This document shows positions 591-26,199 of a stretch of DNA of 32,000 nt, piece after piece (the stretch's first letter is position 1; the number at the start of each line of letters is the position of its first letter). The stretch covers positions 3,960,001 to 3,992,000 of the forward strand of contig NZ_CP074694.1 of NCBI RefSeq assembly GCF_018398935.1, written 5' to 3'. The notes under the pieces are model-generated. The model had not been told where the DNA came from. It saw only the letters and a program-made list of their open reading frames with translations, and made no database searches. A program made the position numbers and the translations under genes. This DNA is from Telmatocola sphagniphila (GTDB lineage: Bacteria; Planctomycetota; Planctomycetia; Gemmatales; Gemmataceae).

Positions 591-3500
591 ATGAATCCCT
601 CTCCTGTGAATTCTGCTTCCTTACTCGAATCGATCGATGAATCCGCACGTCGCGAGTTCGAAGCATCTTGGGCAACTGGCTCGCCCCGCCTGATCGAAGA
701 TTTCATCCCACGGCCTGATGATCCTCGACGATTGGCGACGCTTGAAGAACTCGTCAGTATCGAACTCGAACTTGCTTGGAAGGCATTTCAAAAGTCAAGA
801 GCAGGTCCACAACCCTCTCGTGTCGAGAATTACCTGTCGCGATTCCCTGAATTGAATTCTTTCAATATCGTCTCTCGTCTGCTCAGGCAAGAATTCGATA
901 TACGAAAGAATTATGGGGATCGACCTTCAACCAACGAGTTCCGCGAGCGATTTCCCGAGTTCGCAACTGTTGTAGACAAATTGGAAACCGACGCGACAAA
1001 TGATAATGTCCAAGGTGAAGATAAACCGCCAGTAGTCGACGGGTATGAAGTCCTCAGGGTCTTGGGCAAAGGGGGTATGGGAGTTGTCTACGAGGCTGTC
1101 GAAGGCCGACTCGAGCGCTTAGTGGCTTTAAAAACATCTCGATTAGGATCGGGAAAGAACAACTCAGAAATTCGGATGCGATTCCTGGCTGAAGCACGCG
1201 TTGCCGCTCGGCTTGAGCACCCCGGTGTTGTTCCGGTTCACGAACTAGTGACGCCTTCGTCGGGCGAGCCATTTTACACGATGAAGCTTGTTCGAGGTAA
1301 AAGTCTGGCTGACGCAATTTATGAATTCCATGCCTCGAAACGACCCCCTAGCGAACAGGCCGTCGCCCGCCGACGGTTGATCGAAGCCTTCCTCGCGGTC
1401 ACTCGAACTATGGCATTCGCCCATGAGAAAGGCGTAATTCATCGTGACTTAAAGCCGGCGAATATTGTACTCGGAGAATATGGCGAGACACTAATACTCG
1501 ATTGGGGCTTGGCAAAAGAACTAAGCGAAGTTGGACCAGACGATTCGCATTATTCCGAAGCAAAGATCTCATCCGTCGAATTGACCGCGCGCGGTGTAGT
1601 ACTCGGAACACCTGCTTACATGTCTCCCGAACAGGCGGCAGGCCGAACGGATGAAGTAGATGCTCAAAGCGACGTCTATGCACTCGGAGCTATTCTTTAC
1701 CACATTTTGACGGGCCAACTACCTCATCGTTGTGTAGATGGAAATATCCTGCAATTCATACTGGAGAGCGAACCAGTACGTCCTTCGATAGCAGCGGCGA
1801 ACGTTGCACGTCCATTGGAAGAAATCTGCCTGAAGGCGATGACCAAGCGGCGAGAGGATCGCTATCCGACGGCAAAAGCACTCGCGGACGATGTAGAGCG
1901 ATGTCTAGCGGGAGAGCCAGTCTCGGTTTACAGGGAACGATTGCACGAAAGGTTTGCCAGGTGGTCGCGCCGGAATCGTCTTCTCGTCGCTACCGGCAGT
2001 GTGGCGGTCGTACTCTCCACCTTGGGTATCGTTGTGGGTCTTTACCTGCATTGGCAAGCGGAGCAAGAGCGGCGCGAACAGGAACTCAATTTTCAAATTG
2101 ATCGCAATCGCTTGGCCTACGAATCGGAACGTAAGGAAACGCAAGCTCGAACCGAAAAGCGAGAAGCGATTCTTCGTTCCGCCCAATATGAGCTAGCCCG
2201 CGGTATCGCTGAACTGAAGTCAGATCGCTTTTCCGCTGCTGAACAGGCCTTCCGTAAAGGGTTGGTCGATATAAATTCGATTGAAGATCCGGGCATGCGC
2301 TCGCAGTTAGAACGTTTGCATCGCGAGGCTGGGCACTTAGCTGGATTTTACCGTTATTGGGAACGAGCTGAACGGTTGGCTTTAGTCACTGATGATATTT
2401 CATATCAACCAGGAGACGACACCGTGGTTGCGGCCTGCGAAGCGGGCCTAAAGAACTTGGGTGTCCTGAATGGGCCCGCCGAGTGGTGGAATCATTTGCC
2501 AGATAGTGAACTTCAGGAGAACCAGCGTCACCGTCTACGAGAAGAAACTTGTTCTTCACTCGGCCTCCTGGCAATGTGGCGAACCAAACGCGCCGTTATG
2601 AAGGAATTGACAGGTGCAAAGGAAGCGAGCAAGATCGATTATCGCAATACTATCGAGATACTCGGCCGCATCCAAGCGTTCGTTCGGTCCGATACGCGGC
2701 GTAAATCTGGAGAGCGGGTGTCTCCGGCGGCTGATGGCCTCGAACTCTTCTGTCGGCTCCAATTGGGAGAACCTCCGAATGCATTAAAATTACCGCTCGT
2801 CGGCGACAACGCTACCGACCTCTATTTCCTGGGCGTAACTCATGTATTTCTTGAGTTCTCACGAGGTTATCTAGAATCCGGGCAAACCTTCAGCAAAATT
2901 TTGCCTCTTCTAGGCCGGGGATCCATGGTTGACATCTTGATGTCCCGACTCGGCGATTTTAAAAAATTAAGCGGACTTGATTTCACCACCCCATTAGTCA
3001 CAGCGGAACGACAACTTAGAAACGCAGTTGCGATGGACCCAAGCCACTATCTTTCTCACTACTGGCTCGGCCGTTGCCTTAGGGAAGCTAAGAATTTCTC
3101 GGCGGCAGAGCAAGCATTCAACTCCTGCATTGCACTACGTCCCGATTACGTTCCAGCTTATATCGGCCGCGCGGAAACCCTGATCATCGAATCGAATGAC
3201 ACAAAAAGAGCGAAGCCGCCTCGGCTGGCTCAGGACCTCCTTGAAGGGGCACTGCGCGGAATCGAAAAAGCGCCAGAGTCGGTACGCGCTGATCCGCAAG
3301 TTCGGTGGTTCGAATCGATCTGCTTGGAGAGGCTTGGTCGCGAAGACGAGTCATTGCAAGTTGCGACGGATGCCATGGAAAAGGAAATCGTTCAGCGAAA
3401 TGGAGTCACATCCGGCCTGCCCTCTATCGCGAAGTGGGCGTTGAAATATATGGAAGAAGAAGCGAAACTTAATCCTAACAACTTGGAGATTCAGGCTTGC

Positions 3501-3950
3501 CACGGAGTAGCTCTGCTGGGAAGTAAGCACTTTAAAGCTGCAAGAGATGTAGTGGATAAAGTTTTGATGAAAGATCAAAGGCAGTCTCGAGCCCTCGTAG
3601 TTCGCGGGATGTTACGGCTTGAATCAGGCGAGGCTCAAGGAGCACTGCAGGATTTTGACGCTGTACTTAATTTGTCTCCACGTCAGCAGGCGGCACTGGC
3701 AGGTCGAGCGTGGACGTTAGAGCAACTCGGCGACTGGGAAGCAGCTCTTAAAGCTCACTCCGCGCAGTTGCCGGAAGGCTTTGTCGGCAAGGGACCCCAA
3801 CATTTACAACCTTATCTCGGCCAAGCCAGAGCTTACCAGAAACTCGGCCGCTCCGAGGATGCCCGCAAAGCACTAGAAGCGGCACAGGAGATCGACCCGG
3901 TAGCAGCTGAAAATCTCAGTACCAAACTATTCCCACCAACAAGTCCATAA
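591..3950 (+). CDS. Ser/Thr protein kinase with one TM helix and C-terminal TPR-like repeats
   Basis: Hanks kinase motifs are present: G-loop LGKGGMGVV (nt 1062-1088), VALK, HRDLKPAN (nt 1440-1463), DWGLAK, GTPAYMSPEQ. A hydrophobic stretch LLVATGSVAVVLSTLGIVVGLYL follows the kinase domain. The C-terminal half has repeated TPR-like patterns (e.g. YWLGRCLREAKNFSAAEQAFNSCIALRPDY). Confidence 0.9.
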   Translation: MNPSPVNSASLLESIDESARREFEASWATGSPRLIEDFIPRPDDPRRLATLEELVSIELELAWKAFQKSRAGPQPSRVENYLSRFPELNSFNIVSRLLRQEFDIRKNYGDRPSTNEFRERFPEFATVVDKLETDATNDNVQGEDKPPVVDGYEVLRVLGKGGMGVVYEAVEGRLERLVALKTSRLGSGKNNSEIRMRFLAEARVAARLEHPGVVPVHELVTPSSGEPFYTMKLVRGKSLADAIYEFHASKRPPSEQAVARRRLIEAFLAVTRTMAFAHEKGVIHRDLKPANIVLGEYGETLILDWGLAKELSEVGPDDSHYSEAKISSVELTARGVVLGTPAYMSPEQAAGRTDEVDAQSDVYALGAILYHILTGQLPHRCVDGNILQFILESEPVRPSIAAANVARPLEEICLKAMTKRREDRYPTAKALADDVERCLAGEPVSVYRERLHERFARWSRRNRLLVATGSVAVVLSTLGIVVGLYLHWQAEQERREQELNFQIDRNRLAYESERKETQARTEKREAILRSAQYELARGIAELKSDRFSAAEQAFRKGLVDINSIEDPGMRSQLERLHREAGHLAGFYRYWERAERLALVTDDISYQPGDDTVVAACEAGLKNLGVLNGPAEWWNHLPDSELQENQRHRLREETCSSLGLLAMWRTKRAVMKELTGAKEASKIDYRNTIEILGRIQAFVRSDTRRKSGERVSPAADGLELFCRLQLGEPPNALKLPLVGDNATDLYFLGVTHVFLEFSRGYLESGQTFSKILPLLGRGSMVDILMSRLGDFKKLSGLDFTTPLVTAERQLRNAVAMDPSHYLSHYWLGRCLREAKNFSAAEQAFNSCIALRPDYVPAYIGRAETLIIESNDTKRAKPPRLAQDLLEGALRGIEKAPESVRADPQVRWFESICLERLGREDESLQVATDAMEKEIVQRNGVTSGLPSIAKWALKYMEEEAKLNPNNLEIQACHGVALLGSKHFKAARDVVDKVLMKDQRQSRALVVRGMLRLESGEAQGALQDFDAVLNLSPRQQAALAGRAWTLEQLGDWEAALKAHSAQLPEGFVGKGPQHLQPYLGQARAYQKLGRSEDARKALEAAQEIDPVAAENLSTKLFPPTSP

Positions 3951-4439: not shown

Positions 4440-4862
4440 TTAGTCAATCACGTCTTTATTTGTTTCACTTCTTCCAAGAATCCACCCCCCGCTGAAGTAG
4501 TTGACACCATTTAACAAGAGTAATTTTTTTGCGATTTGGCGTGTTATTAATAGATTATAATATTGATTTGATTTTATATTAAGTAGATAAAGTGGAAATC
4601 TCCAACAATTTAATATTGGATATGATATTCCAATTCTTAATAAGAGAATGCTTGTGGTATCGACTGTTGGCTGAAATGATATTCCTACTATTCGATCAGT
4701 TGAAACAAAGCATTTGTATTCTATTTCAGAATTGCATTTAATAATTCTGCCGAATTCTAATGCCGGAATAGTATCAATAAATTCTTCTTGAATTGTTTTG
4801 ATTACAGAAATTAAATAATCCCTCTGAATTTTTAATATTAAAGCTTCTGCCATTAAACTCAC
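4440..4862 (-). CDS. Hypothetical protein (very AT-rich orphan ORF)
   Basis: 140-codon ORF in a segment (about 4440-4900) visibly much more AT-rich than its flanks. No motif recognised. Coding status is supported only by ORF length in AT-rich, stop-prone sequence. Confidence 0.4.
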   Translation of the reverse strand: MSLMAEALILKIQRDYLISVIKTIQEEFIDTIPALEFGRIIKCNSEIEYKCFVSTDRIVGISFQPTVDTTSILLLRIGISYPILNCWRFPLYLLNIKSNQYYNLLITRQIAKKLLLLNGVNYFSGGWILGRSETNKDVID

Positions 4863-4914
4863 CTGGTAAATTTAAATAACAATATAAATGAGGCTCTGGC
4901 ACTAGTGTATCGTC

Positions 4915-5433
4915 TCACACAGAAGATGTTTTATCCAAGGTAGCCCTCGCCCGGCGGACTTTCTCCAGAATAGCCTCGGCTTTGGCAGTCCATTGGAATC
5001 CTTTTCCCGTGTTGTTGTGATGATCGATGTAGCCTTCAATTGCCTCGAACAACTGCGGCACACTTCGAAATATCCCTCGACGCAGTCGTTTGTCCGTTAA
5101 GTCGTGAAACCAGCGTTCCACCAGGTTCATCCAGGAACTGCTCGTGGGGATGAAATGCATGTGGAATCGAGGATGTCGGGCGAGCCAACGCTGAACTTTG
5201 GGATGCTTATGCGTCGCGTAGTTGTCCACGATCAAATGCAAGTCCAAGGCCGGATCGGTGGCGGCCTTGATCCGTTTGAGAAACTTGATCCATTCCTGGT
5301 GTCGATGTCGCGGCATGCATTCGCCAATTACTACTCCCTTGGCCACGTTCAGGGCCGCGAACAGAGTGGTGCCATGACGCGTGTAATCGTGAGTCAGAGT
5401 GCCGCAACGGCCGGGTATGATATCGTCCCGCAT
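4915..5433 (-). pseudogene. IS630-family transposase, 5'-truncated (C-terminal DDE half only)
   Basis: [11 protein letters not shown]...[20 protein letters not shown]...[17 protein letters not shown] matches the second D and the E region of IS630/Tc1-like transposases. The N-terminal HTH half and the first D are absent. The frame is closed at 5434-5436 by the stop codon of the upstream gene. Confidence 0.85.
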
Positions 5434-6201
5434 CTAACAGATATTGGCGATGGCCGCTTTTACATGATCGGCGAGTTTGTCCAAATACTGTTCCATGCCT
5501 TGCCGAGTAGTTGCCGGGTTTGTGCCTGCAATCTCATGTCCGACTTCATTCCGAAGTCGGGTGTAGATCGTCTCGTTCCGATTGAGATGAGAATTGAAGA
5601 TTTGTTGAACTCCCGGTTCTTGCCCAATAATGAAGTCATCCACATACTTCTGCGTGTATTTCGATCCACCCTCCAGTGAAAGGAGTATTTTGTACAGATG
5701 CATGAATCTTGCTACAGGATCTTCTTGGCAGATAATCCATCGGAATTGCGCATAGTAAGTGTCTTTCTTCGGATCGGATGCTCCAATGGCGATTTTTAAT
5801 CGCGGCACGTCAGCAACATTTATCGTGTGCGTAAAGCATCCACTACCTGAGAAATGGATTGTATTAGAGAAGGATCTATGGACAGTTTCTCCAGCGACTT
5901 GGACTTCGAAGCTACTATCACCTTTCACAGCATTCTCTGCAGCTATCTTGAATTCAAACGCGAGTCGATTAGCGACTTGTGTCGCGATCAATCGACCAAT
6001 GCTATCCGCATCTTCAACGGATGCGACTTGCTTGAAACAGACTTTGACGAGAATTTGTTTTTCATTAGGCGAACTGATCTCTACTCGAGCTACAAATGGA
6101 AACTCTTTTGTCGTCAAGTCGAAAGGAGTGAGTGTAAGAAAGTAATAGCCAGTTATTTTGATTTTATAGAATTGGTAGCCGGTAAGCATGAGTCCGCTCA
6201 T
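5434..6201 (-). CDS. Hypothetical protein with C-terminal HEPN-like RNxxxH motif
   Basis: 255-aa ORF with a beta-rich N-terminal half. The helical C-terminal half carries TRLRNEVGH (R217-N-E-V-G-H222, nt 5536-5553), which fits the HEPN R-N-x-x-x-H signature. The fold assignment is unverified. Confidence 0.55.
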   Translation of the reverse strand: MSGLMLTGYQFYKIKITGYYFLTLTPFDLTTKEFPFVARVEISSPNEKQILVKVCFKQVASVEDADSIGRLIATQVANRLAFEFKIAAENAVKGDSSFEVQVAGETVHRSFSNTIHFSGSGCFTHTINVADVPRLKIAIGASDPKKDTYYAQFRWIICQEDPVARFMHLYKILLSLEGGSKYTQKYVDDFIIGQEPGVQQIFNSHLNRNETIYTRLRNEVGHEIAGTNPATTRQGMEQYLDKLADHVKAAIANIC

Positions 6202-6938
6202 TTTTCCTGAGACCAGGGTATCGTTAAGTATTCAAATCACTTGAATACCCATCGCACCCAACTGTTTAACAATTCCCGTGTTGTTTCCACGCCATCGAAA
6301 CAGCGCACAACTTACTCAGAAATTGATGGCCCCATCTTGAAGATTAGTTCCGAAGCGTATTGCATGACCATAGCGACACGTTCATTGCCTCAATTTCTGG
6401 CCATCGACTGCATTCGTCGTCTGAAGTCTTGAAAGCAAGGTGTTGGAGGCATTGACATAAGCACATTATAGCACTGATAAAATCGCTGCACAATAGACTG
6501 TGTGCGTGTCTCAGCGATTTTCGATACGGGCTGAATAAAGCAGCCAAGTCAAAGCAAAAATGCACAATTTTTCGTTAGCGGATAGGCGCGTCTCGCGAAA
6601 ATTACACCCCCCCCGGTTGCATCCCAGATTAGCACCGTTTTTTGAAGTATTTCCCGGATCGGCTCTCTACTTTCCGCAATTGCATCCCTCCTTCTACTCG
6701 CGCCATAGCGGGCTCATTCGGCCTCCGACACGTCCAATGAAGGACGGAACCTTACGCGCGCACCACTGAGATGATAAAAGCAGCGGCGCGAACAGTTACG
6801 ATTACGATTTGCTGCCGCTTGGGTTTCACTTTTGGAGATTCGGCATCCAGGCCAAACTGCCGTTCCAGCTAATAAGTAAGACAGTTTCGGGTTGGTAATT
6901 GGACCTATTAACAATTTTACAAATGCACAGAAATGAAA

Positions 6939-7640
6939 CTATTCTGGAGGCGTGACAATCGCTTGAAAACGAGTTACTTGCCAATCTAGCTCCTCTTTCA
7001 TTAGCTCACCTTTGGCATGACGGGCAAATTTCGCAGCCTCGCGTGCCGCCGAAGCACCGGTGACATGGCCTCTTGAAGCTTCGGCCGCTGACTTTGCTGC
7101 CCTACCCGCAACTACGGATGCCAGTCCTAATGTCAAAGATGCTTCTTCCGCTCGACTGCAAGCGGCTTCCGACTCATTCTGCGCGTCGTCGTTCTGAGCG
7201 GCATCTGTAAATTCTCGCGCCGTAGCGATCGTTGCCATTATTACGTCCTTTTGTTGGCCCGGAGGGATGATGTCCAATACGTGTGCTGCACAATCCAATG
7301 CAAATCGCCGAGCAGTATCATCTGTCCAGGTACCGGCATAAAGTTGCCGCACGAGTCGTACCCTCTTTGCAACCGTGTATCCATCCCGTTGCAGAAAAGG
7401 AGCATTTGCATCGAACTCCACCTCGAATAGAGCGTCTCCAAGCCACTGAACCATTTCACACATATCTAGGCAGAGAAAAATGCCTTTATCCGAATTCTTC
7501 GCATTGACGTTTATTGAGAGATCGCCCTCGACTTCAGCCCAATCGCCGGGTAGATCATTGATCGGCAACTTGCCAACAAAGGCATTATTGACGCCGAAGC
7601 CAGAAGAACCATCACGGTTTAACGTCTTGAAAAATGGCAT
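6939..7640 (-). CDS. Hypothetical protein (beta-rich N-terminal module + Ala-rich helical C-terminal module)
   Basis: 233-aa ORF lying 65 nt downstream of, and co-oriented with, the 528-aa gene. The N-terminal part ends ...GDALFEVEFD. The C-terminal part (ARRFALDCAAHVLD...AAKSAAEASRGHVTGASAAREAAKFARHA) recalls Imm5-type helical immunity-like proteins, from memory only. Confidence 0.55.
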   Translation of the reverse strand: MPFFKTLNRDGSSGFGVNNAFVGKLPINDLPGDWAEVEGDLSINVNAKNSDKGIFLCLDMCEMVQWLGDALFEVEFDANAPFLQRDGYTVAKRVRLVRQLYAGTWTDDTARRFALDCAAHVLDIIPPGQQKDVIMATIATAREFTDAAQNDDAQNESEAACSRAEEASLTLGLASVVAGRAAKSAAEASRGHVTGASAAREAAKFARHAKGELMKEELDWQVTRFQAIVTPPE

Positions 7641-7705: not shown

Positions 7706-9292
7706 TTATTGGTTCACCTCAAGATCACCCCATTCTTGACCGCCCTTGGCGATTACTGAGAGTAATGCATTTGAACGTTTACGCATATCGCTGGGAATTC
7801 GAGCAAGGATCTCATCTGGACCGAGAATATCTGCTTGAATATTGTCCTTAAGAGCAAGTTCTTTTAATTTTGCTTTTGCGTCTTCCCCTATAGCACCGCT
7901 AGTCCAAATCTCTGCGTAGCATCTGCCGATAGCTTTGTTTTCTTTCTTCGTCCACCATTTGCGACAAGAGGGTACGGTCTCAACGAAGAACTTGGTCACT
8001 TCGGAAGGACTCAACTCTTTATGCTCGTGGTAGGCCTTGCATTCTACCATAATAAGATCATCTCCCTTTTTTCCAAAGACATCAACATCCCGCTTACGCT
8101 CTTCCCGAAAGGGTACATCTTGGCCAAGTACGATGCCTTCCCAACCTTCTGAACGTAATACAAGCCCTGCGAGAACTTCGAATCCTATGGAGCAGAGATC
8201 CATCACAACAGGATTCGACTTTAGATTTTCCAATGCGCCTAGGAACTGCTTGAATTCATTTTCAAGAGATTTCTGTTGGCCACTAACTCTTAAATCACCG
8301 AGAATTTGTTCGACCATAACCATTGCATTCAGAGCTTCGTCACCGAACATTTGGGTGAAATTAACTGTAACCAACCCCTTATTTTTTGCTTCGTCCCAAG
8401 CATTCTTATCGAATTGACGAGCACCAATGATACCTAGATATGGCTGTCGCCTTCTCCCCCAGTTGGTCGCATTGTTTGCTCGAGTTAGAAATGATTGAAC
8501 GGCGGACAATGAGCATCGATCCGCATAAACGTCAATCAATACAGGGCAGGGAATTCGTTTTTTTGCTTCGTTGACACGTACAAGCGGAGCAAGCCAGCTA
8601 AAGCCGTATGCGGTGAAGATTTGACCACTGTAATCGACATATCCTTTCGATTGCGAGGGCAACTCGTTGCCGTTCCATGAAACTAAGCTTTGCCGCTTAA
8701 GCCGGATTGTTAATATACGCGCAAGAAGGCTCTCCTTCCGGAGTGTTAGCAGTGATCTAATCGCTAGCTCGTCATAACTACTTTGGCTTTCCCAAGAATT
8801 CTCTGTAACAAGGTATTCGAATTCCGTGCCTTTCCCTCCTACCTTCACCCCCAATTCTGCTAAAGCTGTAACTTCTTCATCGAAAGAGGGTGAATGGGGA
8901 TTGGTCGAGACCGTTGCGGCCACGAGTCGATGCGCATGCGTTCGGTGAAGGACAGTATAACGTTCCAGTGCCTCCAGACAACGTGCAAGTCCTGGTCTTA
9001 ATTCACGTAGACACTCTGCGGCTTGACGGCAAAAGCCCGGTGTACCTACGAATGAAGATCTCGCAAAAAGTCGTTCCCCATGGGGGAGTTGCAAGTGTCC
9101 AGATCTCCAGAGCTTCGGGTCGCGAGTAGATGCTCGACTGATAGACTTTTTAGCGGCATCTCTCCCCATCCCACGCTCAGCCATTCGTTTGAGCAATTCG
9201 GAAGAAGTGATGAGTTCGCATTGGCCAATCAAATCGGATGGCTTGAACTTTTGCGGAACTGCGGCAACCATGATTTCCCCCAAGAAAGTCAC
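7706..9292 (-). CDS. Protein with tandem Mrr-like restriction-endonuclease-fold (PD-(D/E)xK) domains
   Basis: The C-terminal domain (aa about 368-495) reads FEVLAGLVLRSEGW...RDVDVFGKKGDDLIMVECKAY (E417-C-K419 at nt 8036-8044), followed by ...EIWTSGAIGEDAKAKL...ADILGPDEIL. This is the Mrr_cat-like layout. The middle domain (aa about 215-315: VLIDVYADR...GIIGARQFDKNAWDEAKNKGLVTVNF) has the same layout but lacks E-x-K. The N-terminal 130 aa or so are unassigned. Confidence 0.7.
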   Translation of the reverse strand: MTFLGEIMVAAVPQKFKPSDLIGQCELITSSELLKRMAERGMGRDAAKKSISRASTRDPKLWRSGHLQLPHGERLFARSSFVGTPGFCRQAAECLRELRPGLARCLEALERYTVLHRTHAHRLVAATVSTNPHSPSFDEEVTALAELGVKVGGKGTEFEYLVTENSWESQSSYDELAIRSLLTLRKESLLARILTIRLKRQSLVSWNGNELPSQSKGYVDYSGQIFTAYGFSWLAPLVRVNEAKKRIPCPVLIDVYADRCSLSAVQSFLTRANNATNWGRRRQPYLGIIGARQFDKNAWDEAKNKGLVTVNFTQMFGDEALNAMVMVEQILGDLRVSGQQKSLENEFKQFLGALENLKSNPVVMDLCSIGFEVLAGLVLRSEGWEGIVLGQDVPFREERKRDVDVFGKKGDDLIMVECKAYHEHKELSPSEVTKFFVETVPSCRKWWTKKENKAIGRCYAEIWTSGAIGEDAKAKLKELALKDNIQADILGPDEILARIPSDMRKRSNALLSVIAKGGQEWGDLEVNQ

Positions 9293-11154: not shown

Positions 11155-11562
11155 TCATTTATTGGTATACAACGAAATTGCTTCGTCAGTTGTCATCGTT
11201 TGGAAGGATTCGGCAAAATTCGACCGATTTGTCTCGAAACTCTCCTTGCATTTCACCGGAACAAAAAGTATGAGATCGGAACGGCTTCTCGTCATAGCGA
11301 CATAAGCTATTCTCCTCGCTTCGCGATCCTTCGTATTATTAGACCACCAAATTTGTGAAGGGCAATTAGCTGTATTCGTTCGGTCTGGACAGACAAAAAT
11401 CGAAATATCATGAGTTTCTCCTTTGACTGCATGGACTGTCTCAATTGATATTGATCTGGCAGATATTTGCTGGCTTTTGAATGGAATAGTAACATTCGCA
11501 ATTTCAGATGCTGACGTTAGCTTTTTGGGTTTGGGTACAGTCGTTGGAGTGGCCAATCCTTT
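11155..11562 (-). pseudogene. gajB: UvrD-like helicase GajB, 3' part (split by ISAs1 insertion)
   Basis: ...SIETVHAVKGETHDISIFV...RIAYVAMTRSRSDLILFV matches helicase motifs V/VI. The first 11 codons of the listed ORF (MFSWNLSAISL) are IS-end sequence. The gajB sequence begins at KGLATPTTV. Confidence 0.85.
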
Positions 11563-12851
11563 CAGGGAAATCGCGCTTAAATTCCAAGAAAACATCTAAT
11601 GTCATTAATTGTATTGCGCATCGTTCTTCTTTAGTGGAGGATGTGGAAATCGCTCGCTAGATCGCCCTGGGGTTCCTCGATGTTTCAGCTTTCCGAACTA
11701 TCTCCCGCGCCGGCGAAAACTCCGTTGACCGATCTCCTCGTCCACTTCGCGGATTTGCCCGACCACCGCCTCGATCGTTGCCAACAACACACGCTTTCGG
11801 AAATCATTTTCATAGCCATTTGCGCCGCGGTTTCCGGAGCCAACGACTGGGTGGCCGTCGAAGCTTTCGGCGTGACCAAGATCGACTGGTTCCGGAAGTA
11901 TCTCCCTTGCCCAACGGCATCCCGAGCCATGACACTTTCGGCCGAGTTTTCCGCTATCTGGACACGGATGCTTTCGAGGCCTGCTTCGCTTCATGGATGG
12001 CGGAAATCTGCGTCGGGACCGACCTGCTTCAGGTGGCGATCGACGGCAAGACGATGCGTTCGTCAGGCGGTCCGGGTCAGAAGTGCCTGCACGTGGTCAG
12101 CGCGTTTGCGACGGCCAACCGCGTGACGCTGGGCCAAGAGGCGGTGGACGATAAATCGAACGAGATCACCGCGATCCCGGAATTGCTGAAACGGCTGGAC
12201 ATTGCCGGAAAAATCGTGACTATCGACGCGATGGGCTGTCAAAAAAATCGCCGAGGCGGTGCGGGAACGGGACGCGGATTACCTGTTGGCGGTGAAGGAC
12301 AATCAACCGACTCTCTTGGCCGAGATCAAGGCTCATTACTTCAAGCATTTGGAGTCCGGATTCGCCGATGTACCGACGACGTTCTGCGAATCGACGGAGA
12401 AGAATCGAGGCCGAGTGGAGTACCGTTCGTGCCTCGTGTTTTCGGACGTCAATTTCTTATCGATGAAGGACGATTGGAAAGGCTTGAAGACGGTGGTCGT
12501 GGTGGTGACCGACCGCCGAGAAAACCACAAGAGCGCGAGCGAAATCCGCTACTATATTTGCAGCCGAGCGTCGGACGCTCCGGTGTTGGCGAAAGCGGTC
12601 CGGGAACATTGGACGATCGAGAATAATTTGCATTGGTCCTTGGATGTGACATTCGGCGACGACGACAGCCGGGTTCGAAAAGATAACGGCCCTCAGAATT
12701 TCGCCAGGATTAAAAGGTTGGCTCTGAGCATAGTGGCGAATGCGAGCGGCAAGGAATCGATGGCAGTCAAACGACTGAAAGCCTGCGCCAGCGATGAACG
12801 CCGAGAATTAATTATTCGAGAATTCCTTCAGCTTTAAATGCGATTTCCCTG
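11563..12851 (+). mobile_element. ISAs1-family insertion sequence, copy 1 (1289 bp)
   Basis: Terminal inverted repeats CAGGGAAATCGCGCTTAAA (left) and CAGGGAAATCGCATTTAAA (rc of right), 17/19. Exact 10-bp direct duplication CCAATCCTTT at 11553-11562 and 12852-12861. Essentially identical to 24911-26199. Confidence 0.9.
11641..12837 (+). pseudogene. ISAs1-family (H-repeat/YhhI-like) transposase with two frameshifts
   Basis: The N-terminal part in frame 1 reads ...LLVHFADLPDHRLDRCQQHTLSEIIFIAICAAVSGANDWVAVEAFG...WFRKYL. The middle in frame 3 reads LPNGIPSHDTFGRVF...VAIDGKTMR...SNEITAIPELL...IDAMGCQK. The C-terminal part returns to frame 1 (DYLLAVKDNQ...HWTIENNLHWSLDVTFGDD). The shifts lie near 11905 (C-run) and at the A7 run 12241-12247. 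Confidence 0.85.
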
Positions 12852-14250
12852 CCAATCCTTTGATTGCGGCTACAGCAGAAATATGCCTGGTTATAATTGT
12901 CCACGCTTTGCTCTGCCAACCAAAAAGTGTATCATTAACATCTAATGAATCGCCTTCAAGGAGGCACTGGACACATCGTTCTCTCCATTCAAATACCGAC
13001 AAACCATATTTAGATAGCTGCTCATCAGTAATTCCTTCCTGTTCGAACAGAGCTAATTCGAGCGAAGCCCGGCAAGCCGCGAGGGCCAAGGAGTTTTGTC
13101 CTTGACGGAAAGCAATCACAGCGCGTTGGAAGTGGTTTAAGGGTGGGCTACCCAATTTGCGAGGCTGTTCTGATTTGTGACCTTTTAGTACCCTTACGGT
13201 CATGTTGAGTCTTGCGATAGCTTTGATAACCGAATTTGAATGCGATTTACTAACCGCCGCAGACAGCCGATTGAAATCTACAACCATGTCATCATAAGTC
13301 ACCATAAGCGCCCTACCGACAGGGTTATTTTCGGGAGATACGATGTTTCCTGTCTCCTTCAAGTGACTTGCCACTTTAGCAACCGATTTTGAGCAACGAA
13401 GACTCGTGCTCAATGGAAAGACCTCAGCATCCTGGATGATCTCAAACTGGTCAAACAAATCTGGTCGCGCACCGTTAAATTCAAAAATTGACTGGTCAGG
13501 GTCGCCAACAAGAACGCCGCGCACATATGAGCTGCTTAAAATGCTCTTCAGACATTTACTCAAGAAGAAACCGGTGTCTTGCAATTCATCAATAAAAATT
13601 AAAGGGAAACGGCGTGTGATCTCAGTGATAATTAACGCCTTATATTTTTCATCTTCTAAAAGCTTGCTTGCCCACAACGCGGCATCTGAATGAGTCATAA
13701 GGCCAGATTTCTTCCAAACATTATTTTTACATTCTTTTACAATTCTCAGATCGTCTCCTGTCAATTTGATTAATGGCTGCATTGGGTGAGGTTTTCTCGC
13801 TGCAATTGCGCCTTGACAGTCTTCATCAATCCAGACGCAGCTACAGAGGTTAATGCCTTTGCCTACATTCGCCTTCAGGCCTTTGCCAAGGCTGCTCCAA
13901 TGCTCTGCTCCCCATTCGCCGGGTAACAACCGAGGGTGGCGGAAGATCGGATAACATTTGCAAAAAAATGGACGAATCACATAGCGAAATAGAAAAGAAT
14001 CGATTGTTCCCACAAAATGTGGATGGCTTAGATCGCGACCGACCGCCTTTCGAATTTCTTCTCCGCCAACCTTTGTGAATGACAAAGCTGCAATGCCGCT
14101 GGTTTGGGTTTGCCAAGAGTTTAGCTCGCGGAGGATTAGTTCGGCCACCATCCAAGTCTTTCCGCTGCCGGGCGATGCGCGTACCACGCGGATTCGAGAC
14201 CCGTTTTTGTTGTCAATAACTGCCTGCTGCTCAACGGTCGGAAACCTCAT
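12852..14250 (-). pseudogene. gajB: UvrD-like helicase GajB, 5' part (split by ISAs1 insertion)
   Basis: Walker A VRASPGSGKTW and motif II IFIDELQDT are present. The listed 480-aa ORF ends ...AAIKGL then reads into the IS end (AGKSHLKLKEFSNN). Removing the IS and one duplication copy joins ...AAIKGL|ATPTTV... in frame. The start overlaps the gajA stop (ATGA at 14247-14250). Confidence 0.85.
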
Positions 14251-16085
14251 TGTGTAGAGTCTCCTGAAGAATGGTCTTTTGGTGGATCAATTCCCGTAAC
14301 AACGAAGTCAATTGCTCTACTGAGATACGGCGGCACTGCGAATTCGAGCGTACAGGCTGTGCATTTGCTAGAAATGGTTAACTTGGCAGCCAATTTGTGC
14401 GCAAATTCGGCTTTGCTTCCTGTGTGATTGGCACGACATATCCCTCGCCAAGTTGCTAACGCGCGGTCTTTTAGATCGTTGCCTGCTTTAGCCAGCCTAT
14501 CTTTGTTGAAGGTTGTGGGCTTTTTTTCAAAGCATGATTCCCAAACATCTGCCATGACGTTAGCGTTGTTGTTGCCCGCTAGAGCTAGATCATATTCGAG
14601 TGTTAGTGCCGAACTGAAGACTTGAACCGAAGTGTGCTTGTCAAATAGCAACCTAAGATTGACCATGCGCGCCGATGGTACGAATTCCCCATCTTTCATT
14701 TCAGGCACCGCTTCTTCCCACTTCACATTCGTAGGCACGGAAGGATCAGAATCTGATACAATCGCCACGGGGATTCCAAAACCTTTGGTGTCAAACAGCT
14801 TTTTGAATGTCCCAAACGCTACACCACAGATGGGAATTACAGAAATGTGCAGTTTCGCCAAATCGCGTCCAAGACGTTTGGCCAATGGTGGAAGAAGAAG
14901 TGCTTCTGAAATTCCCTCAACAAGTATTACGGCTTTTGCAAAATAAAGCGTCGCTCGCGTAACATCAAGCATCCGCTGAAGGTCTGATTCTTCCGTGGGA
15001 GTCATTCCCGAATTTGCGATTCGGTTGCAATGGAGCGATCCCATTTTGTCCGCGAACAGGACCGAGATTCGGCATGGCTGCACACTCGCCGCCAGCGTTG
15101 GGGAGTGAGTTGTGACTATGGTTTGAGGAGTTTTGGAGCCAGGTGTCTTGTTAGACAAATACTCAGCGAGCAGCATAGTAAGCTGAGGATGCAAATGAGC
15201 CTCCGGCTCCTCGATAAGCAGGAGGGGGCTTTCGTCGGGCACTGGCTCTCGAAGATGCTCTAGGACAACCGCAATATAGAGCAAATTATTGTAGCCTAGC
15301 CCGTTAGCTTCAAGATCGCCAATTGGTGCTCCATCCATTTGGATGTGAAGCAAACGAAGTATTCGTTCAAATTCAACTTCTGCTGCCCTAATCGCAGATG
15401 GGGAGTAGTCGCTACCAGCAAGTTCAATCGTAGTAGACTGAAGAGAGGTAATGGTTCCTTTAATTAAATCATGCTTTTCGAGCTCATGGTTCGCTTGGCT
15501 ATAGATCGACTCAATGTCCGTTTTGACTGTGCCACCTCGACGCTCCGCAAGATCGCGTAGCAGCAGTGCAAGCCTACTTCGGCTCCCAGGAGTAAGAGAT
15601 GCTTTCGCATCACGAAGGGCAGGAAGATACGTGACAGGCAAGGACTCTAAAATCCGCGTCGAAATATCTTGTGTGTCTGGGGCAACAGGGCCGCCAGTTC
15701 TCCGAATCTGGGCCTGCCTTTTCCCTTTTGGCCAGCTAGCCGTGAATTTGATAACCGCTTTGGAATTAGCAAGGTTCGTTACATTGAAATCAACTATTTC
15801 GAAAAAATGTGAGCGTTGTTCCGCCGAAAGATCTGCGAAGGTTAGAGTTATCGAAATCGTTCGGTATTCAGTATCTTCTACAGATTCCTTGAAAAAGTCA
15901 TCTCGGTCAAGCCAAAGAGATTCACCTCTAGACGCGCTAGGGCCAAGTGCATGACGTATAGCATCTAAGATTGCAGTTTTGCCAGTATTGTTTCTACCGA
16001 CTACCACATTTAGCCCTGCACCTAAATCTACCCTCAAGGATTTGATCGCACGAAAATTCTCGATTTCAACAATGGATAGAAACAT
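14247..16085 (-). CDS. gajA: OLD-family ATPase/TOPRIM nuclease GajA
   Basis: N-terminal ABC-type ATPase (IENFRAIK...VVGRNNTGKTAILDAI, ...LLLIEEPEAHLHPQ) and C-terminal TOPRIM (VILVEGISEALLLP, VAIVSDSDPS). It sits immediately upstream of a UvrD-like helicase, which is the class-2 OLD / Gabija arrangement. Confidence 0.85.
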   Translation of the reverse strand: MFLSIVEIENFRAIKSLRVDLGAGLNVVVGRNNTGKTAILDAIRHALGPSASRGESLWLDRDDFFKESVEDTEYRTISITLTFADLSAEQRSHFFEIVDFNVTNLANSKAVIKFTASWPKGKRQAQIRRTGGPVAPDTQDISTRILESLPVTYLPALRDAKASLTPGSRSRLALLLRDLAERRGGTVKTDIESIYSQANHELEKHDLIKGTITSLQSTTIELAGSDYSPSAIRAAEVEFERILRLLHIQMDGAPIGDLEANGLGYNNLLYIAVVLEHLREPVPDESPLLLIEEPEAHLHPQLTMLLAEYLSNKTPGSKTPQTIVTTHSPTLAASVQPCRISVLFADKMGSLHCNRIANSGMTPTEESDLQRMLDVTRATLYFAKAVILVEGISEALLLPPLAKRLGRDLAKLHISVIPICGVAFGTFKKLFDTKGFGIPVAIVSDSDPSVPTNVKWEEAVPEMKDGEFVPSARMVNLRLLFDKHTSVQVFSSALTLEYDLALAGNNNANVMADVWESCFEKKPTTFNKDRLAKAGNDLKDRALATWRGICRANHTGSKAEFAHKLAAKLTISSKCTACTLEFAVPPYLSRAIDFVVTGIDPPKDHSSGDSTQ

Positions 16086-17356: not shown

Positions 17357-18069
17357 TCACCAACCGGAGACTAGAAAAAAACGCATTGTCGACACTGCCA
17401 ACTGCGCAAGATAGGTTAGAGCTCCGATGATCGAGATTTTCTGACGGCGACCGGCTTTTTGTTTGAGATAAGGTCGCAGGCCTTTGGGAGCCCAGGTGCG
17501 TCGCAAGAGGGGAGCCAGTCTCAGTCCGGTTTCATCGATGAATACGATAGGCGCCCGCCGGCGATCCCCTTTTTTAAGATTCGGGACCACTCGGTTTTCG
17601 GCCAATCGGCAATTTTCTGTTCCTCGCGTTGGACGGCTTTCTTGCCCGGCATTTGCGGGGAGAAACCTTGTTTGCGTAACCAATCGCAAAAGTAATTGGC
17701 ATTATAATCGATATCAAACATCTCCTTGATGAGTTGGACGACTCGCCGAGAAGTCCACAGGTGAGTGCGGAAGCCGAACTCCGTCGCGTCACGGGTCAGC
17801 CAGGAGCAAACTTCTTGAATTTGCTCTGGGCGGAGCTTGGATTTCGGTCCGGGATGCTTGAGAGCCTTGAGTCCGGCTTCCCCTTGATTTTTGTACCAGG
17901 AGATCCAATTATCCACGCTGCGGGTCGAAACCTTGAGCATGTCGGAAACCTGCTTTATAGTATGGCCTTCGAGGATCAATTGAACGCCCAAACGGCGTCG
18001 GTTCTCCATCTCCGGGCGATTAGTAACTTTCTTGACCAAACGAGGGATGCTTTTCGTTTCCATGCCCAT
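17357..18069 (-). pseudogene. IS630-family transposase, 3'-truncated, two frames joined at an A_AAA_AAG site
   Basis: ORF A (17521..18069) carries the HTH / winged-helix N-terminal part. The -1 frame (to 17357) continues ...RRAPIVFIDETGLRLAP...KISIIGAL (first catalytic D) and then breaks off. The slippery heptamer lies at 17569-17575 on the minus strand. Confidence 0.8.
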
Positions 18070-19064: not shown

Positions 19065-21407
19065 CTACCGCGGGTTCCCGCGGGCGACCAAATTCTCCAG
19101 ATTGAATCGGTTTGCCATATTGCCTTCGTTTACTTGTTCGCTTTGGCATTCTTCTTGGTTTTCATCGACTCTCGGAAGCGATAACTTTCGCCGTTCATCT
19201 CGAAGATGTGGCAGCGGTGGGTGAGCCGATCGAGCAATGCCGCCGTCATCCGTTCGCCCTGAAAGATCTGCACCCAGTCCCCAAACGGCAGATTGCTGGT
19301 GATCAGTAAACTCCTCCGTTCGTAGCGTTCGGCAAAGACCTGGAAGAGCAATTCCGCCGCCATCCGACTGAACGTCAAATACCCCAGCTCGTCGACTATC
19401 AACAAATCGACTCGCTCCAACTGCTGCAAAAAGCGGTCGAGTTGATGCTGCTTCTGAGCTTCTTCCAGATGATTGACCAAGCCGGCGGCAGTAAAGAAGC
19501 GGACGCGTCGTCCGGCTCGGCAAGCCGCCAGGCCCAAGGCAATCGAGAGGTGGGTTTTCCCGGTTCCGGAATCGCCGACTAAGCAGCAGTTGAAGTGCTG
19601 GTCGATCCATTCGTTGCGGGTCAGTTCCAGGATTTTGGGTTTGTTCAGGGAAGGCTGGGCGGTGAAGTCGTAGGTGTCGAAATCCTTCAAGGCGGGGAAG
19701 TGGGCCTGTTTGATCCGACTTTTGAGGACGTTGGCCGCTCGGGCAGTCACTTCCAGTTCGGTCAGACGGAGCAGGTACTGTTCGTAATTCTCGTTGGCCT
19801 GAGCCGCCTCGCGGGCCAGGGCTTCGAATTCGGCTTGGATCGTCGGCAGGCGAAGTTGCTTCAGATTGGTTTTGAGCAGCAGTCGGTGAGTCTCGATCAT
19901 CGGGGGTTTCTCCGAGGGATAAGAAGCGGTTGAATTTTTTCAGATCGGGCGGGGGTAAATGAATGTCGCGAAGGGCCTCCGGCTGTTGATCCTTGGGGAG
20001 CGAAGCCGCTAGAGAATCGCCGCAGGTGCCGCGTACGCCGTGCAGGATGGCTTCGAGATCGAAGCCCGCTTCGGAGCGTTTCTTTTCGATCTCGCATCGA
20101 ACATCCTCGATGGGATGATCTTGAAGTAACAGCAGAATCCGAGCGTACTGCTTGCGACCGCGATTAGCACCGTGCTGTTTTTCCAGAGATTTACGCAGCT
20201 CTTCAAACAGAGGAGGTAAGCGCCAGCGGCGAAACAGATCGGAGTGGTCGAGGGCGGCCGGCCGCTGCTGCAGCGTGCTCAGATAATGGCGGGGATCCAG
20301 AATCTGCTCGTGACGTTGGTAAGAACGAGGATGGGAAGCGATCGTCTGAGCGCCGAGCACTACATCGATCCGTTCGACGTAGACCTTCACCGTCACCGTT
20401 TGAAAGGCCGCCGAGCGGGGAACGCTGTAGCGATTGTTGTCGTAGCGGACCATCTGATACTTGTCGACCTTGCCCGATTCGTGGAGGCAGGGATCGAACG
20501 GACGAGGCGGCAGCAGCAAAGCCTTCTCCAATTCGCTCGCGAAGCGTTGGCCGATGGTCTGCGTTTGCCCTTGCTGCGTCCGCTGGCGATCGCGTTCGCA
20601 GCAGGTTCTTAAATGGGCATTCAACTCGGCCAGATTCCCAACGGAAGGAACCGGCGTCGCCCAGTCCCGCTGCAAGTGCCGGACTCGGCCTTCGACGTGC
20701 GGCTTCTCCTGAGGTCGACGGACCAGGCAGAACAGCGGCTGAAATGCATAGTGACTGCTCAAGGCCTGGTACCGTTCGTTGATCTGGCGTTCCCGACCGG
20801 CGAACGGATGCGGGGCCACCGTTTTGGGATTGTCCCACCAGAGTTCCCGCGGCGTCGCACCGAAGAAATGGAAAGCTTCGACCAGACCATGCAGGATCGC
20901 CTCGGTCCGTTCGCTGGGCAACGCCAACACGAAGGGGCAATTGGAGTAAGCCCAGGTCGTCACCAGAACGGGAACCAACTGGCGACCACCGGGAAAATCG
21001 ACGTGAATGTGGCCGAAATCCGCTTCGAGTCGCTGACCCGGCTCCGATTGAAGGGGAATAAACGTCTCGCGTTGGACTCGATGCTGAGACTGCACGTAAA
21101 CTCGGATGCGATCGTAGCTCCCGCGATAGCCATGCTCATCGCGCAGCCGACGGTAAATCTTGGCCGCGGTGTGACGCTGCTTGCGGGGAGCTTCTCGATC
21201 GCTCCGCAGGATCTCCTCAATAATCGCTGTGAAAGAGTCGAGCAGCGATGGCATGGCTCGTCGCTGGTACGGCTTGGGTTCCGGCTCGTCGAGAATCTGA
21301 CGGATCTTCCGCCGGGAATGATGAAAAGTCCGGGCCAGTGCACGGATGCCCATCTTATCTATTCGATGAGCCTGACGTATTCTCGCGTATTCGTCCACCT
21401 TGACCAT
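19065..21407 (-). CDS. istA: IS21 transposase IstA (780-codon ORF; IstA similarity ends near residue 505)
   Basis: HTH N-terminus, then an rve/DDE core (...EADFGHIHVDF...VTTWAYSNCPFVLALPSE...WWDNPKTV...). Recognisable IstA sequence ends around ...PPDLKKFNRFLS (about nt 19890). The frame then stays open across all of istB. Confidence 0.85.
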   Translation of the reverse strand: MVKVDEYARIRQAHRIDKMGIRALARTFHHSRRKIRQILDEPEPKPYQRRAMPSLLDSFTAIIEEILRSDREAPRKQRHTAAKIYRRLRDEHGYRGSYDRIRVYVQSQHRVQRETFIPLQSEPGQRLEADFGHIHVDFPGGRQLVPVLVTTWAYSNCPFVLALPSERTEAILHGLVEAFHFFGATPRELWWDNPKTVAPHPFAGRERQINERYQALSSHYAFQPLFCLVRRPQEKPHVEGRVRHLQRDWATPVPSVGNLAELNAHLRTCCERDRQRTQQGQTQTIGQRFASELEKALLLPPRPFDPCLHESGKVDKYQMVRYDNNRYSVPRSAAFQTVTVKVYVERIDVVLGAQTIASHPRSYQRHEQILDPRHYLSTLQQRPAALDHSDLFRRWRLPPLFEELRKSLEKQHGANRGRKQYARILLLLQDHPIEDVRCEIEKKRSEAGFDLEAILHGVRGTCGDSLAASLPKDQQPEALRDIHLPPPDLKKFNRFLSLGETPDDRDSPTAAQNQSEATSPADDPSRIRSPGPRGGSGQRELRTVPAPSDRTGSDCPSGQRPQKSDQTGPLPRLEGFRHLRLHRPAFPEQTQNPGTDPQRMDRPALQLLLSRRFRNRENPPLDCLGPGGLPSRTTRPLLYCRRLGQSSGRSSEAASTRPLFAAVGASRFVDSRRAGVFDVQSDGGGIALPGLCRTLRTEEFTDHQQSAVWGLGADLSGRTDDGGIARSAHPPLPHLRDERRKLSLPRVDENQEECQSEQVNEGNMANRFNLENLVARGNPR
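19130..19900 (-). CDS. istB: IS21 helper ATPase IstB
   Basis: Walker A GDSGTGKTHL, Walker B LLIVDELGY and ...LLITSNLPFGDW... are classic IstB features. Confidence 0.9.
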   Translation of the reverse strand: MIETHRLLLKTNLKQLRLPTIQAEFEALAREAAQANENYEQYLLRLTELEVTARAANVLKSRIKQAHFPALKDFDTYDFTAQPSLNKPKILELTRNEWIDQHFNCCLVGDSGTGKTHLSIALGLAACRAGRRVRFFTAAGLVNHLEEAQKQHQLDRFLQQLERVDLLIVDELGYLTFSRMAAELLFQVFAERYERRSLLITSNLPFGDWVQIFQGERMTAALLDRLTHRCHIFEMNGESYRFRESMKTKKNAKANK

Positions 21408-24910: not shown

Positions 24911-26199
24911 CAGGGAAATCGCGCTTAAATTCCAAGAAAACATCTAATGTCATTAATTGTATTGCGCATCGTTCTTCTTTAGTGGAGGATGTGGAAATCG
25001 CTCGCTAGATCGCCCTGGGGTTCCTCGATGTTTCAGCTTTCCGAACTATCTCCCGCGCCGGCGAAAACTCCGTTGACCGATCTCCTCGTCCACTTCGCGG
25101 ATTTGCCCGACCACCGCCTCGATCGTTGCCAACAACACACGCTTTCGGAAATCATTTTCATAGCCATTTGCGCCGCGGTTTCCGGAGCCAACGACTGGGT
25201 GGCCGTCGAAGCTTTCGGCGTGACCAAGATCGACTGGTTCCGGAAGTATCTCCCTTGCCCAACGGCATCCCGAGCCATGACACTTTCGGCCGAGTTTTCC
25301 GCTATCTGGACACGGATGCTTTCGAGGCCTGCTTCGCTTCATGGATGGCGGAAATCTGCGTCGGGACCGACCTGCTTCAGGTGGCGATCGACGGCAAGAC
25401 GATGCGTTCGTCAGGCGGTCCGGGTCAGAAGTGCCTGCACGTGGTCAGCGCGTTTGCGACGGCCAACCGCGTGACGCTGGGCCAAGAGGCGGTGGACGAT
25501 AAATCGAACGAGATCACCGCGATCCCGGAATTGCTGAAACGGCTGGACATTGCCGGAAAAATCGTGACTATCGACGCGATGGGCTGTCAAAAAAATCGCC
25601 GAGGCGGTGCGGGAACGGGACGCGGATTACCTGTTGGCGGTGAAGGACAATCAACCGACTCTCTTGGCCGAGATCAAGGCTCATTACTTCAAGCATTTGG
25701 AGTCCGGATTCGCCGATGTACCGACGACGTTCTGCGAATCGACGGAGAAGAATCGAGGCCGAGTGGAGTACCGTTCGTGCCTCGTGTTTTCGGACGTCAA
25801 TTTCTTATCGATGAAGGACGATTGGAAAGGCTTGAAGACGGTGGTCGTGGTGGTGACCGACCGCCGAGAAAACCACAAGAGCGCGAGCGAAATCCGCTAC
25901 TATATTTGCAGCCGAGCGTCGGACGCTCCGGTGTTGGCGAAAGCGGTCCGGGAACATTGGACGATCGAGAATAATTTGCATTGGTCCTTGGATGTGACAT
26001 TCGGCGACGACGACAGCCGGGTTCGAAAAGATAACGGCCCTCAGAATTTCGCCAGGATTAAAAGGTTGGCTCTGAGCATAGTAGCGAATGCGAGCGGCAA
26101 GGAATCGATGGCAGTCAAACGACTGAAAGCCTGCGCCAGCGATGAACGCCGAGAATTAATTATTCGAGAATTCCTTCAGCTTTAAATGCGATTTCCCTG
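24911..26199 (+). mobile_element. ISAs1-family insertion sequence, copy 2 (1289 bp)
   Basis: Same ends and the same ORF pattern as copy 1. I noticed one difference (G at 12735 vs A at 26083, synonymous). The flanks (...CTATTTTGG | ACTGAAGAGC...) show no direct duplication. Confidence 0.9.
24989..26185 (+). pseudogene. ISAs1-family transposase with the same two frameshifts as copy 1
   Basis: The ORF-track translations in all listed frames are identical to copy 1, at an offset of 13348 nt. Confidence 0.85.

Follow-up and report, generated by a model that had tools for sequence, protein, structure and literature searches.

HEPN proteins are defined by an Rx4-6H motif in which a polar residue (N, D, or H) stands right after the arginine, and many of their families, but not all, also have an acidic residue in helix-2, often within an Ex3[KR] motif (PMC3710099, Anantharaman et al. 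2013). Among described systems, those closest to the gene examined here are the single-gene HEPN abortive-infection proteins (AbiD/F, AbiJ, AbiU2, AbiV, and ApeA) together with Ymh, the HEPN-MNT toxin-antitoxin pairs, PrrC and RloC, and DzbB, the second protein of Dazbog. The gene lies on the reverse strand of a 32,000-nucleotide (nt) stretch of Telmatocola sphagniphila DNA (contig NZ_CP074694.1, positions 3,960,001 to 3,992,000), hereafter called the window, and was singled out in a preliminary description made from the letters and their open reading frames (ORFs). Our analysis of its product, a protein of some 250 amino acids (aa), indicates that it is probably a new HEPN-like single-gene defense or abortive-infection candidate.

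The preliminary description reported an ORF with an RNEVGH motif near its end (Table 1). The ORF is real, and the codons, read directly, confirm the motif: cgg (5553–5551) encodes R217 and aat N218, followed by gaa, gtc, gga, and cat (5538–5536) for H222. Most homologs are 251 to 253 aa long and begin with MLTGYQ or MLSGYQ, so that M5 is the probable real start, and gene calling on a second, independent assembly gave a 100%-identical protein of 251 aa (P0001). An initial search returned 27 relatives, of which the two nearest are 100% and 72% identical to the query. When 1.84 billion representative sequences were searched with a profile, the family grew to 872 clusters (at 50% identity) with E ≤ 1e-3, of which 598 reach E ≤ 1e-10. 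Almost all of these clusters are of ~250 aa and match end to end, with very few fusions; the family is one of stand-alone two-domain proteins.

Conservation was scored in an alignment of 98 sequences, whose members are 22 to 72% identical to the query. The preliminary description had made its proposal depend on conservation of the motif arginine and histidine, and both R217 and H222 proved invariant (98/98), as did Y170. N218 and Q184 are each conserved in 96 sequences, E219 in 94, and E210 in 92; position 188 is Asp in 89 and Glu in 7; and R79 and L80 of the N-terminal domain are near-invariant among homologs. An RNxxxH string occurs in 4 of 155 unrelated ORFs of 200 to 300 aa in the fetched loci. 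The string alone is weak evidence, and it is the conservation of the motif, not its mere presence, that exceeds chance. Family members are found in Planctomycetota, Nitrospirota, Beta-, Gamma-, and Deltaproteobacteria, Cyanobacteria, Actinobacteria (Rubrobacter), Bacteroidota (Bacteroidales), Armatimonadota, Verrucomicrobiota, Bacillota (Priestia), and one Thermoplasmata archaeon, a patchy spread typical of mobile defense genes; tblastn against a phage collection gave no match.

A full-length AlphaFold2 model, built from the 27-sequence alignment, has a mean predicted local distance difference test score (pLDDT) of 89.6 and a predicted template modeling score of 0.85, and the C-terminal domain modeled alone adopts the same fold (pLDDT 89.3). 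The N-terminal domain is predicted to consist of antiparallel strands (5–17, 20–24, 27–29, 37–46, 49–59, 92–102, 105–107, and 123–127) and one long helix (62–84) that ends in a conserved DRLAF motif, with a low-confidence loop at 106–121. This part of the protein is beta-rich, as the preliminary description had it, but the domain (residues 5–127) stops short of the ~150 aa given there and includes the long helix. No family could be assigned to it; it resembles TBP (Foldseek E 0.18–0.44) and SRP14 (phmmer E 0.19) at non-significant levels.

In the model, the C-terminal domain comprises helices 129–140, 144–157, 162–177, and 184–194, a hairpin (200–203/208–211), helix 212–220, and a long last helix (229–252). 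R217 and N218 would fall at the end of helix 212–220 and H222 in the loop (221–228) that leads into the last helix, with helix 184–194 and the hairpin (200–211) forming a predicted insert between helix 162–177 and the motif helix. The sequence R217-N218-x3-H222 thus conforms to the Rx4-6H definition, polar residue included, and the predicted secondary structure places the motif where HEPN domains have it, at a helix end and loop before a long last helix and behind an insert. Of the HEPN four-helix context envisaged in the preliminary description, this predicted layout stands, whereas a significant structural or profile match to a recognized HEPN family was not found. We consider it probable that the helical domain of the family belongs to the HEPN superfamily.

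Like the single-gene HEPN abortive-infection proteins and Ymh, the family combines an R-[N]-x3-H motif, with its polar residue after the arginine, with a predicted all-helical domain that carries an insert and presents the motif at the helix end or loop before the long last helix. Its members are likewise solitary proteins of ~250 aa in defense islands and beside systems of the restriction–modification type, and a Ymh protein with the motif FRNPTAH shares an island with homolog P0002. It differs from those families, none of which it matches significantly by sequence, profile, or Foldseek, in lacking a conserved acidic residue in helix-2 and in the predicted beta-hairpin (200–211) directly before the motif helix. 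Its N-terminal domain matches no described HEPN partner domain, ApeA_NTD1 included. With HEPN-MNT, the family shares a small helical domain with an Rx4H motif. When the C-terminal domain was compared with the PDB by Foldseek, entry 5yep (SO_3166–SO_3165), which we take to be a HEPN-MNT toxin-antitoxin pair with SO_3166 as the HEPN toxin, took ranks 1 and 9 as the best, though non-significant, structural match, and the HEPN protein AF_0298 (2hsb) took rank 6. Unlike HEPN-MNT, the family has no MNT or other conserved neighbor in 64 loci and possesses an extra N-terminal domain of 125 residues. No nucleotidyltransferase antitoxin family is listed in the annotated homolog contexts.

PADLOC (2023) holds no model for the family, and the window protein matched none of its models at E ≤ 1. 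The 98 relatives were scanned at E ≤ 0.1, where ~10 chance matches are expected, scattered over 5,027 models; 14 matches fell on HEPN-bearing models (CARF_HEPN 6, Csx1 5, Csm6 1, Csx1/Csm6 1, and Cas13a 1; best E 0.0019). Because chance matches should scatter, this concentration is suggestive, though the sequences are non-independent. Of the two such matches with visible coordinates, the one to CARF_HEPN spans residues 88–222 and aligns with the C-terminal part of the model. Four of the 98 members matched Pfam HEPN_RiboL-PSP (best E 0.013). The relatives suggested in the preliminary description did not emerge: ApeA (HEPN or ApeA_NTD1), AbiU2, and MAE_28990 gave no Pfam or PADLOC match with the window protein (E ≤ 1) and are not among the families reported for the 98 relatives (E ≤ 0.1).

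In 8 of 12 annotated homolog loci, the gene sits beside or within canonical defense systems (Table 1), directly downstream and on the same strand in 7 of them and inside a defense island in the eighth (L003). The BREX systems of L001, L004, and L050 are read as type 2-like. As a simple count, enrichment beside defense systems is clear in the better-annotated loci, and together with the window it bears out the expectation that homologs lie near defense genes. Clustering of ORFs in all frames within ±3 kb of the gene in 64 loci recovered BREX BrxD/helicase and McrB as the only recurrent neighbors, and pairwise comparison of neighbors revealed no similarity. The gene is autonomous and has no conserved partner.

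A different reading is that the HEPN-like RNase does not serve phage defense but is a selfish module for addiction or toxicity, or stabilizes plasmids or islands, perhaps with an unseen antitoxin in cis (a small RNA or a tiny ORF); the gene would then be kept because a cell that lost it, or the antitoxin, would die. Consistent with this, one family member (5089–5844) is among only six genes of a 6.3-kb mobilizable MOBV plasmid, Priestia megaterium plasmid 8 (NZ_CP018881.1; L064), several homolog loci contain toxin-antitoxin genes (PIN, Gp49/HTH), the window gene sits among insertion sequence (IS) elements, and HEPN toxins from toxin-antitoxin pairs head the Foldseek list. HEPN toxins, however, normally adjoin MNT or another antitoxin, and no adjacent protein partner is conserved in any frame within the ±3 kb of the 64 loci. 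Upstream gaps down to 8 to 15 nt in homologs leave scant room for a conserved antitoxin, and placement beside BREX, DISARM, CBASS, and McrBC fits defense better. We therefore regard a selfish module as unlikely.

On balance, we favor the reading that this stand-alone two-domain protein works as a single-gene effector of abortive infection, through a latent RNase activity of the HEPN type, and moves horizontally as a cassette. The C-terminal helical domain would be a divergent HEPN-type domain, in which R217-N218-x3-H222 would form a metal-independent RNase site with assistance from N218. By analogy with other HEPN enzymes, we infer that dimerization would complete this site and that RNA cleavage would leave a 2′,3′-cyclic phosphate. 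A sensor role may fall to the N-terminal alpha/beta domain, whose long helix ends in the conserved DRLAF motif; this domain may also keep the nuclease inactive in the absence of an infection cue. Once active, the enzyme would cut host and/or phage RNA, so that phage production stops (abortive infection). The single-gene cassette would spread horizontally and tend to insert behind larger defense operons, at their 3′ end. The window copy is intact, with an IS630 remnant in place of its former 3′ flank, and lies in a defense island eroded by IS elements.

Several observations weigh against this interpretation. The helix-2 acidic residue is absent: helix 162–177 has the invariant Y170, D161 at its N-cap is Asp in merely 56 of 98 sequences, and the conserved acidic residues D188 and E210 sit in the insert. 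Foldseek matches of the C-terminal domain are non-significant (E 1.5–4.3, TM 0.34–0.39), and those of the full-length model against the PDB and BFVD are spurious low-TM matches only (flavin hydroxylases, TBP). Sequence and profile searches of the PDB with the protein, the family alignment, and the C-domain alignment returned only designed helical proteins. Comparison of the family by hhalign with a Ymh (PF09509) alignment, built from the FRNPTAH-bearing gene in the island of homolog P0002, set RN..H on RN..H and extended through the last helix, at a non-significant P = 0.35. Every match to a HEPN profile has E ≥ 0.0019, none of them significant, and the second PADLOC match with visible coordinates, to Csx1, falls in the N-terminal domain, not at the motif. 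The remaining 4 of the 12 annotated loci show toxin-antitoxin (PIN, Gp49/HTH) or unknown genes only, and a rough census of ±2 neighbors in 46 genome loci (126 ORFs) yielded 124 Pfam families, many of them housekeeping and none recurrent beyond kinases. Finally, toxicity would be expected of a solitary RNase with constitutive activity, and neither an inhibitor nor a trigger has emerged.

Part of this evidence can also be taken to mean that the helical domain is not HEPN, that the protein has another biochemical role, and that R-N-x3-H is a binding or structural motif. The role implied by the name of the one family-level database match, Pfam MauJ (PF17419), is methylamine dehydrogenase maturation. 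This model was matched by 86 of the 98 relatives (best E 3.3e-8) and was the sole recurrent Pfam match; it spans merely 116 positions of the C-terminal domain, and some family members bear MauJ as a precomputed annotation. The window protein scored 15.6 bits (cutoff 28; E 0.03) over a span that includes the motif; it is below the MauJ gathering threshold, yet the link of the family to PF17419 is real. The preliminary description could not assign the protein to a named system and missed this large existing family, already in Pfam under an uninformative name. Nearly all sources name family members “hypothetical”; the two exceptions are JGI, which calls one member “uncharacterized protein with HEPN domain,” and RefSeq, which calls the Priestia plasmid copy “methylamine utilization protein MauJ.” The 12 annotated loci contained no mau cluster and no family of methylamine dehydrogenase or amicyanin, the 25 Pfam families that were most frequent in the 46-locus census included neither these nor any other of mau type, and the Methylovulum locus had no di-haem CxxCH neighbor. 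Since no mau genes occur in any locus examined, the name MauJ has no functional meaning here. In a search of the literature that was not exhaustive, nothing linked PF17419 or MauJ to HEPN or phage defense. A non-HEPN role draws on this database match and the RefSeq name, on the lack of a significant HEPN match, and on the missing helix-2 acidic residue. Against it stand the absence of mau genes and a host range that includes Priestia, Planctomycetota, and an archaeon, as well as a motif position that fits the HEPN definition and weak matches that cluster on HEPN models, which together make it improbable.

The protein might also be a non-catalytic accessory or guard of restriction-like systems, either as a nucleic-acid-binding regulator or as a latent back-up effector that a phage would set free by inhibiting the neighboring system, like PrrC, which is held by EcoprrI. 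Such a role would suit the way in which the gene recurs, on the same strand, at the extreme 3′ end of operons for BREX (4 loci), DISARM, McrBC, and CBASS, with gaps down to 15 nt. Like PrrC and RloC, it would be a putative HEPN nuclease inside or next to restriction-type systems; unlike them, it has no ABC-ATPase domain, and its neighboring systems vary widely. HEPN anticodon nucleases embedded in restriction–modification loci provide a documented precedent (PMC3710099). The adjacent systems are, however, mechanistically unrelated to one another, many homologs are without such a neighbor, and the window has no BREX or DISARM. Diverse or absent restriction-like neighbors make a specific physical coupling unlikely, and the near-complete conservation of the R, N, and H positions argues for catalysis over mere binding; we accordingly give the accessory role little credence.

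DzbB, like the window protein, is a small, function-unassigned protein in defense loci, and its deletion was not transformable, possibly through toxicity (Millman et al. preprint); its partner DzbA is a DUF262 protein (PMC10952713), and the literature on Dazbog offered no domain information for DzbB. That the family is a distant solo relative of DzbB, a neutralizer or immunity-like component instead of a toxic effector, is very improbable: DzbB was the most frequent weak PADLOC match (13 of 98 relatives, best E 7.8e-4), but all of these matches are sub-significant, the window protein has none, the DUF262 partner DzbA is absent from every locus examined and beside no homolog in the annotated ones, and no partner recurs.

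Beyond the favored reading of the window protein as a latent HEPN-type RNase, we tentatively suggest, as a conjecture, that PF17419 “MauJ-like” proteins are an unrecognized and widespread single-gene anti-phage system, a divergent HEPN RNase with a new alpha/beta sensor that has been mis-annotated and rides the 3′ end of operons for BREX, DISARM, CBASS, and McrBC, where it may be a back-up effector for cases in which those fail. Confirmation would bring to the known repertoire of bacterial immunity a compact (~250 aa), partner-less family of RNase effectors, whose hundreds of clusters extend over numerous bacterial phyla and one archaeon or more, would correct the misleading database name “methylamine utilization protein MauJ,” and would supply a new N-terminal domain with an identifiable trigger. 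The recurrent tail position in BREX, DISARM, CBASS, and McrBC operons bears on the idea that islands place a low-cost back-up by abortive infection behind systems that target DNA. Because many single-gene HEPN candidates have been described before, the family would extend a known theme and not establish a new principle. The Priestia megaterium plasmid offers an easy natural construct for functional work; a gene for a 176-aa hypothetical protein lies there 27 nt upstream of the family member.

Table 1. Features of the window and defense systems at homolog loci
Feature	Coordinates	Strand	Remarks
HEPN-like gene, coding sequence	5434–6201	−	255 aa; TAG stop at 5434–5436; from the ORF list
Likely true start of the HEPN-like gene	ATG 6189–6187	−	M5, giving 251 aa
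R217-N218-E-V-G-H222, Rx4H motif	5536–5553	−	Within the family signature ETxYTRLRNExxH
N-terminal alpha/beta domain, residues 5–127	5821–6189	−	AlphaFold2 prediction
C-terminal helical HEPN-like domain, residues 129–252	5446–5817	−	AlphaFold2 prediction; sub-threshold MauJ match at residues 151–231
5′-truncated IS630-family transposase gene	4915–5433	−	C-terminal DDE part only; Pfam DDE_3 match
Intergenic region 5′ of the HEPN-like gene	6202–6938		737 nt; no ORF or signal assigned
233-aa protein, upstream on the same strand	6939–7640	−	Faint Imm5_like match, E 0.07
528-aa protein	7706–9292	−	Weak Pfam Mrr_cat (restriction endonuclease) match, E 0.0019
GajB, split by an IS	12808–14250 and 11155–11595	−	PADLOC model positions 1–452 and 496–576 of 594
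IS interrupting GajB	11563–12851		1289 bp; frameshifted DDE_Tnp_1 ORFs; near-identical second copy at 24911–26199
GajA, intact	14247–16085	−	PADLOC 1.3e-126, full length
L001, L004, L050			BREX with PglY/PglZ/BrxD/helicase; in L001 then also McrBC
L056			BREX PglZ-BrxL
L053			DISARM-like: MmeI-type methylase, helicase, MZB, PLD
L051			McrBC, with pAgo and HNH nearby
L060			CBASS-like NTase, E1/E2, JAB, patatin operon, plus TIR
L003			TIR/SEFIR, Ymh, caspase, AAA_15 island

The window gene directly abuts a transposase fragment. NCBIfam transpos_IS630 matched this fragment with 126.8 bits (cutoff 100) over model positions 167–299 of 299; because coverage starts at position 167, the IS630 gene is a remnant without its ~165 N-terminal residues. 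Its ORF begins at the base right after the TAG stop codon of the HEPN-like gene, and the junction, TAG followed by ATGCGGGACGAT, is base-for-base the same in L063, a contig from an independent short-read assembly; that contig breaks off 44 nt inside the IS, as a repeat would predict. The 5′-truncated IS630 that the preliminary description saw abutting the stop codon is thus borne out by both the NCBIfam match and the second contig. The C-terminus of the protein falls in the same alignment column as in all homologs, so that the rearrangement took the native 3′ flank and spared the coding sequence. On the other side of the gene, the upstream gap is 737 nt, versus merely 8 to 220 nt in homologs, and a scan of 4800–7000 for consensus promoters and terminators found nothing exceeding shuffled background.

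A defense-type neighborhood had been proposed for the gene, and a Gabija system (11155–16085), 6.6 kb from it, together with the weak Mrr_cat match of the 528-aa protein, confirms this. GajA is intact and GajB is interrupted by an IS, and the system is probably inactivated. The island (~4.2–16 kb) has a G+C content of 0.38–0.50, compared with 0.52 in the flanking kinase gene. The genes for the 528-aa and 233-aa proteins could be an uncharacterized two-gene defense or toxin-immunity pair; neither protein shows similarity to the neighbors of the homologs in L001 or L003.

Several smaller observations concern the homolog loci. In a deltaproteobacterial metagenome-assembled genome (L022 9778–10624), the family gene is in three ORF pieces and represents a frameshifted pseudogene. 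An unannotated gene of ~240 aa stands just before the homolog in L055 (7288–8004) and L051 (7247–7993), overlapping it by 4 nt in one and lying 8 nt away in the other; the two proteins did not co-cluster, and that of L051 is unlike the gene flanking the homolog in L001. Downstream of the homolog in L050 (8868–15374) is a three-gene cluster that looks like another defense system; its products are a DUF6361 protein and two others, of 613 aa and 1114 aa, the larger of which has a faint Helicase_C match. Ser/Thr kinases with TPR repeats are found near family members in the window (591–3950, plus strand), in L060 (10138–11637), and as 4 neighbors in the genome loci. These kinases match the PADLOC PD-T4-6 kinase models, and their recurrence near the family may merely reflect the kinase-rich genomes of Planctomycetota.

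Elsewhere in the window, a second IS630 remnant (17400–18069, minus strand) retains the HTH-bearing N-terminal half; its reading frame shifts immediately ahead of the DE motif, and it is cut off near 17400. We considered whether both remnants were one element split by a 12-kb insertion and rejected this, as the two cover overlapping parts of the model and are unlike in sequence; the overlap indicates separate copies. A 140-aa ORF (4440–4862, minus strand) directly downstream of the first IS630 fragment is AT-rich (G+C 0.38) and matches nothing in Pfam, NCBIfam, or PADLOC; it may be non-coding or of foreign origin. Farther along lies other debris of mobile or conflict elements: a Mu-type transposase (19065–21407; rve and Mu-transpos_C_2), a PT-HINT pretoxin fused to a methyltransferase fragment (29795–31270), and a group II intron maturase fragment (31518–31982).

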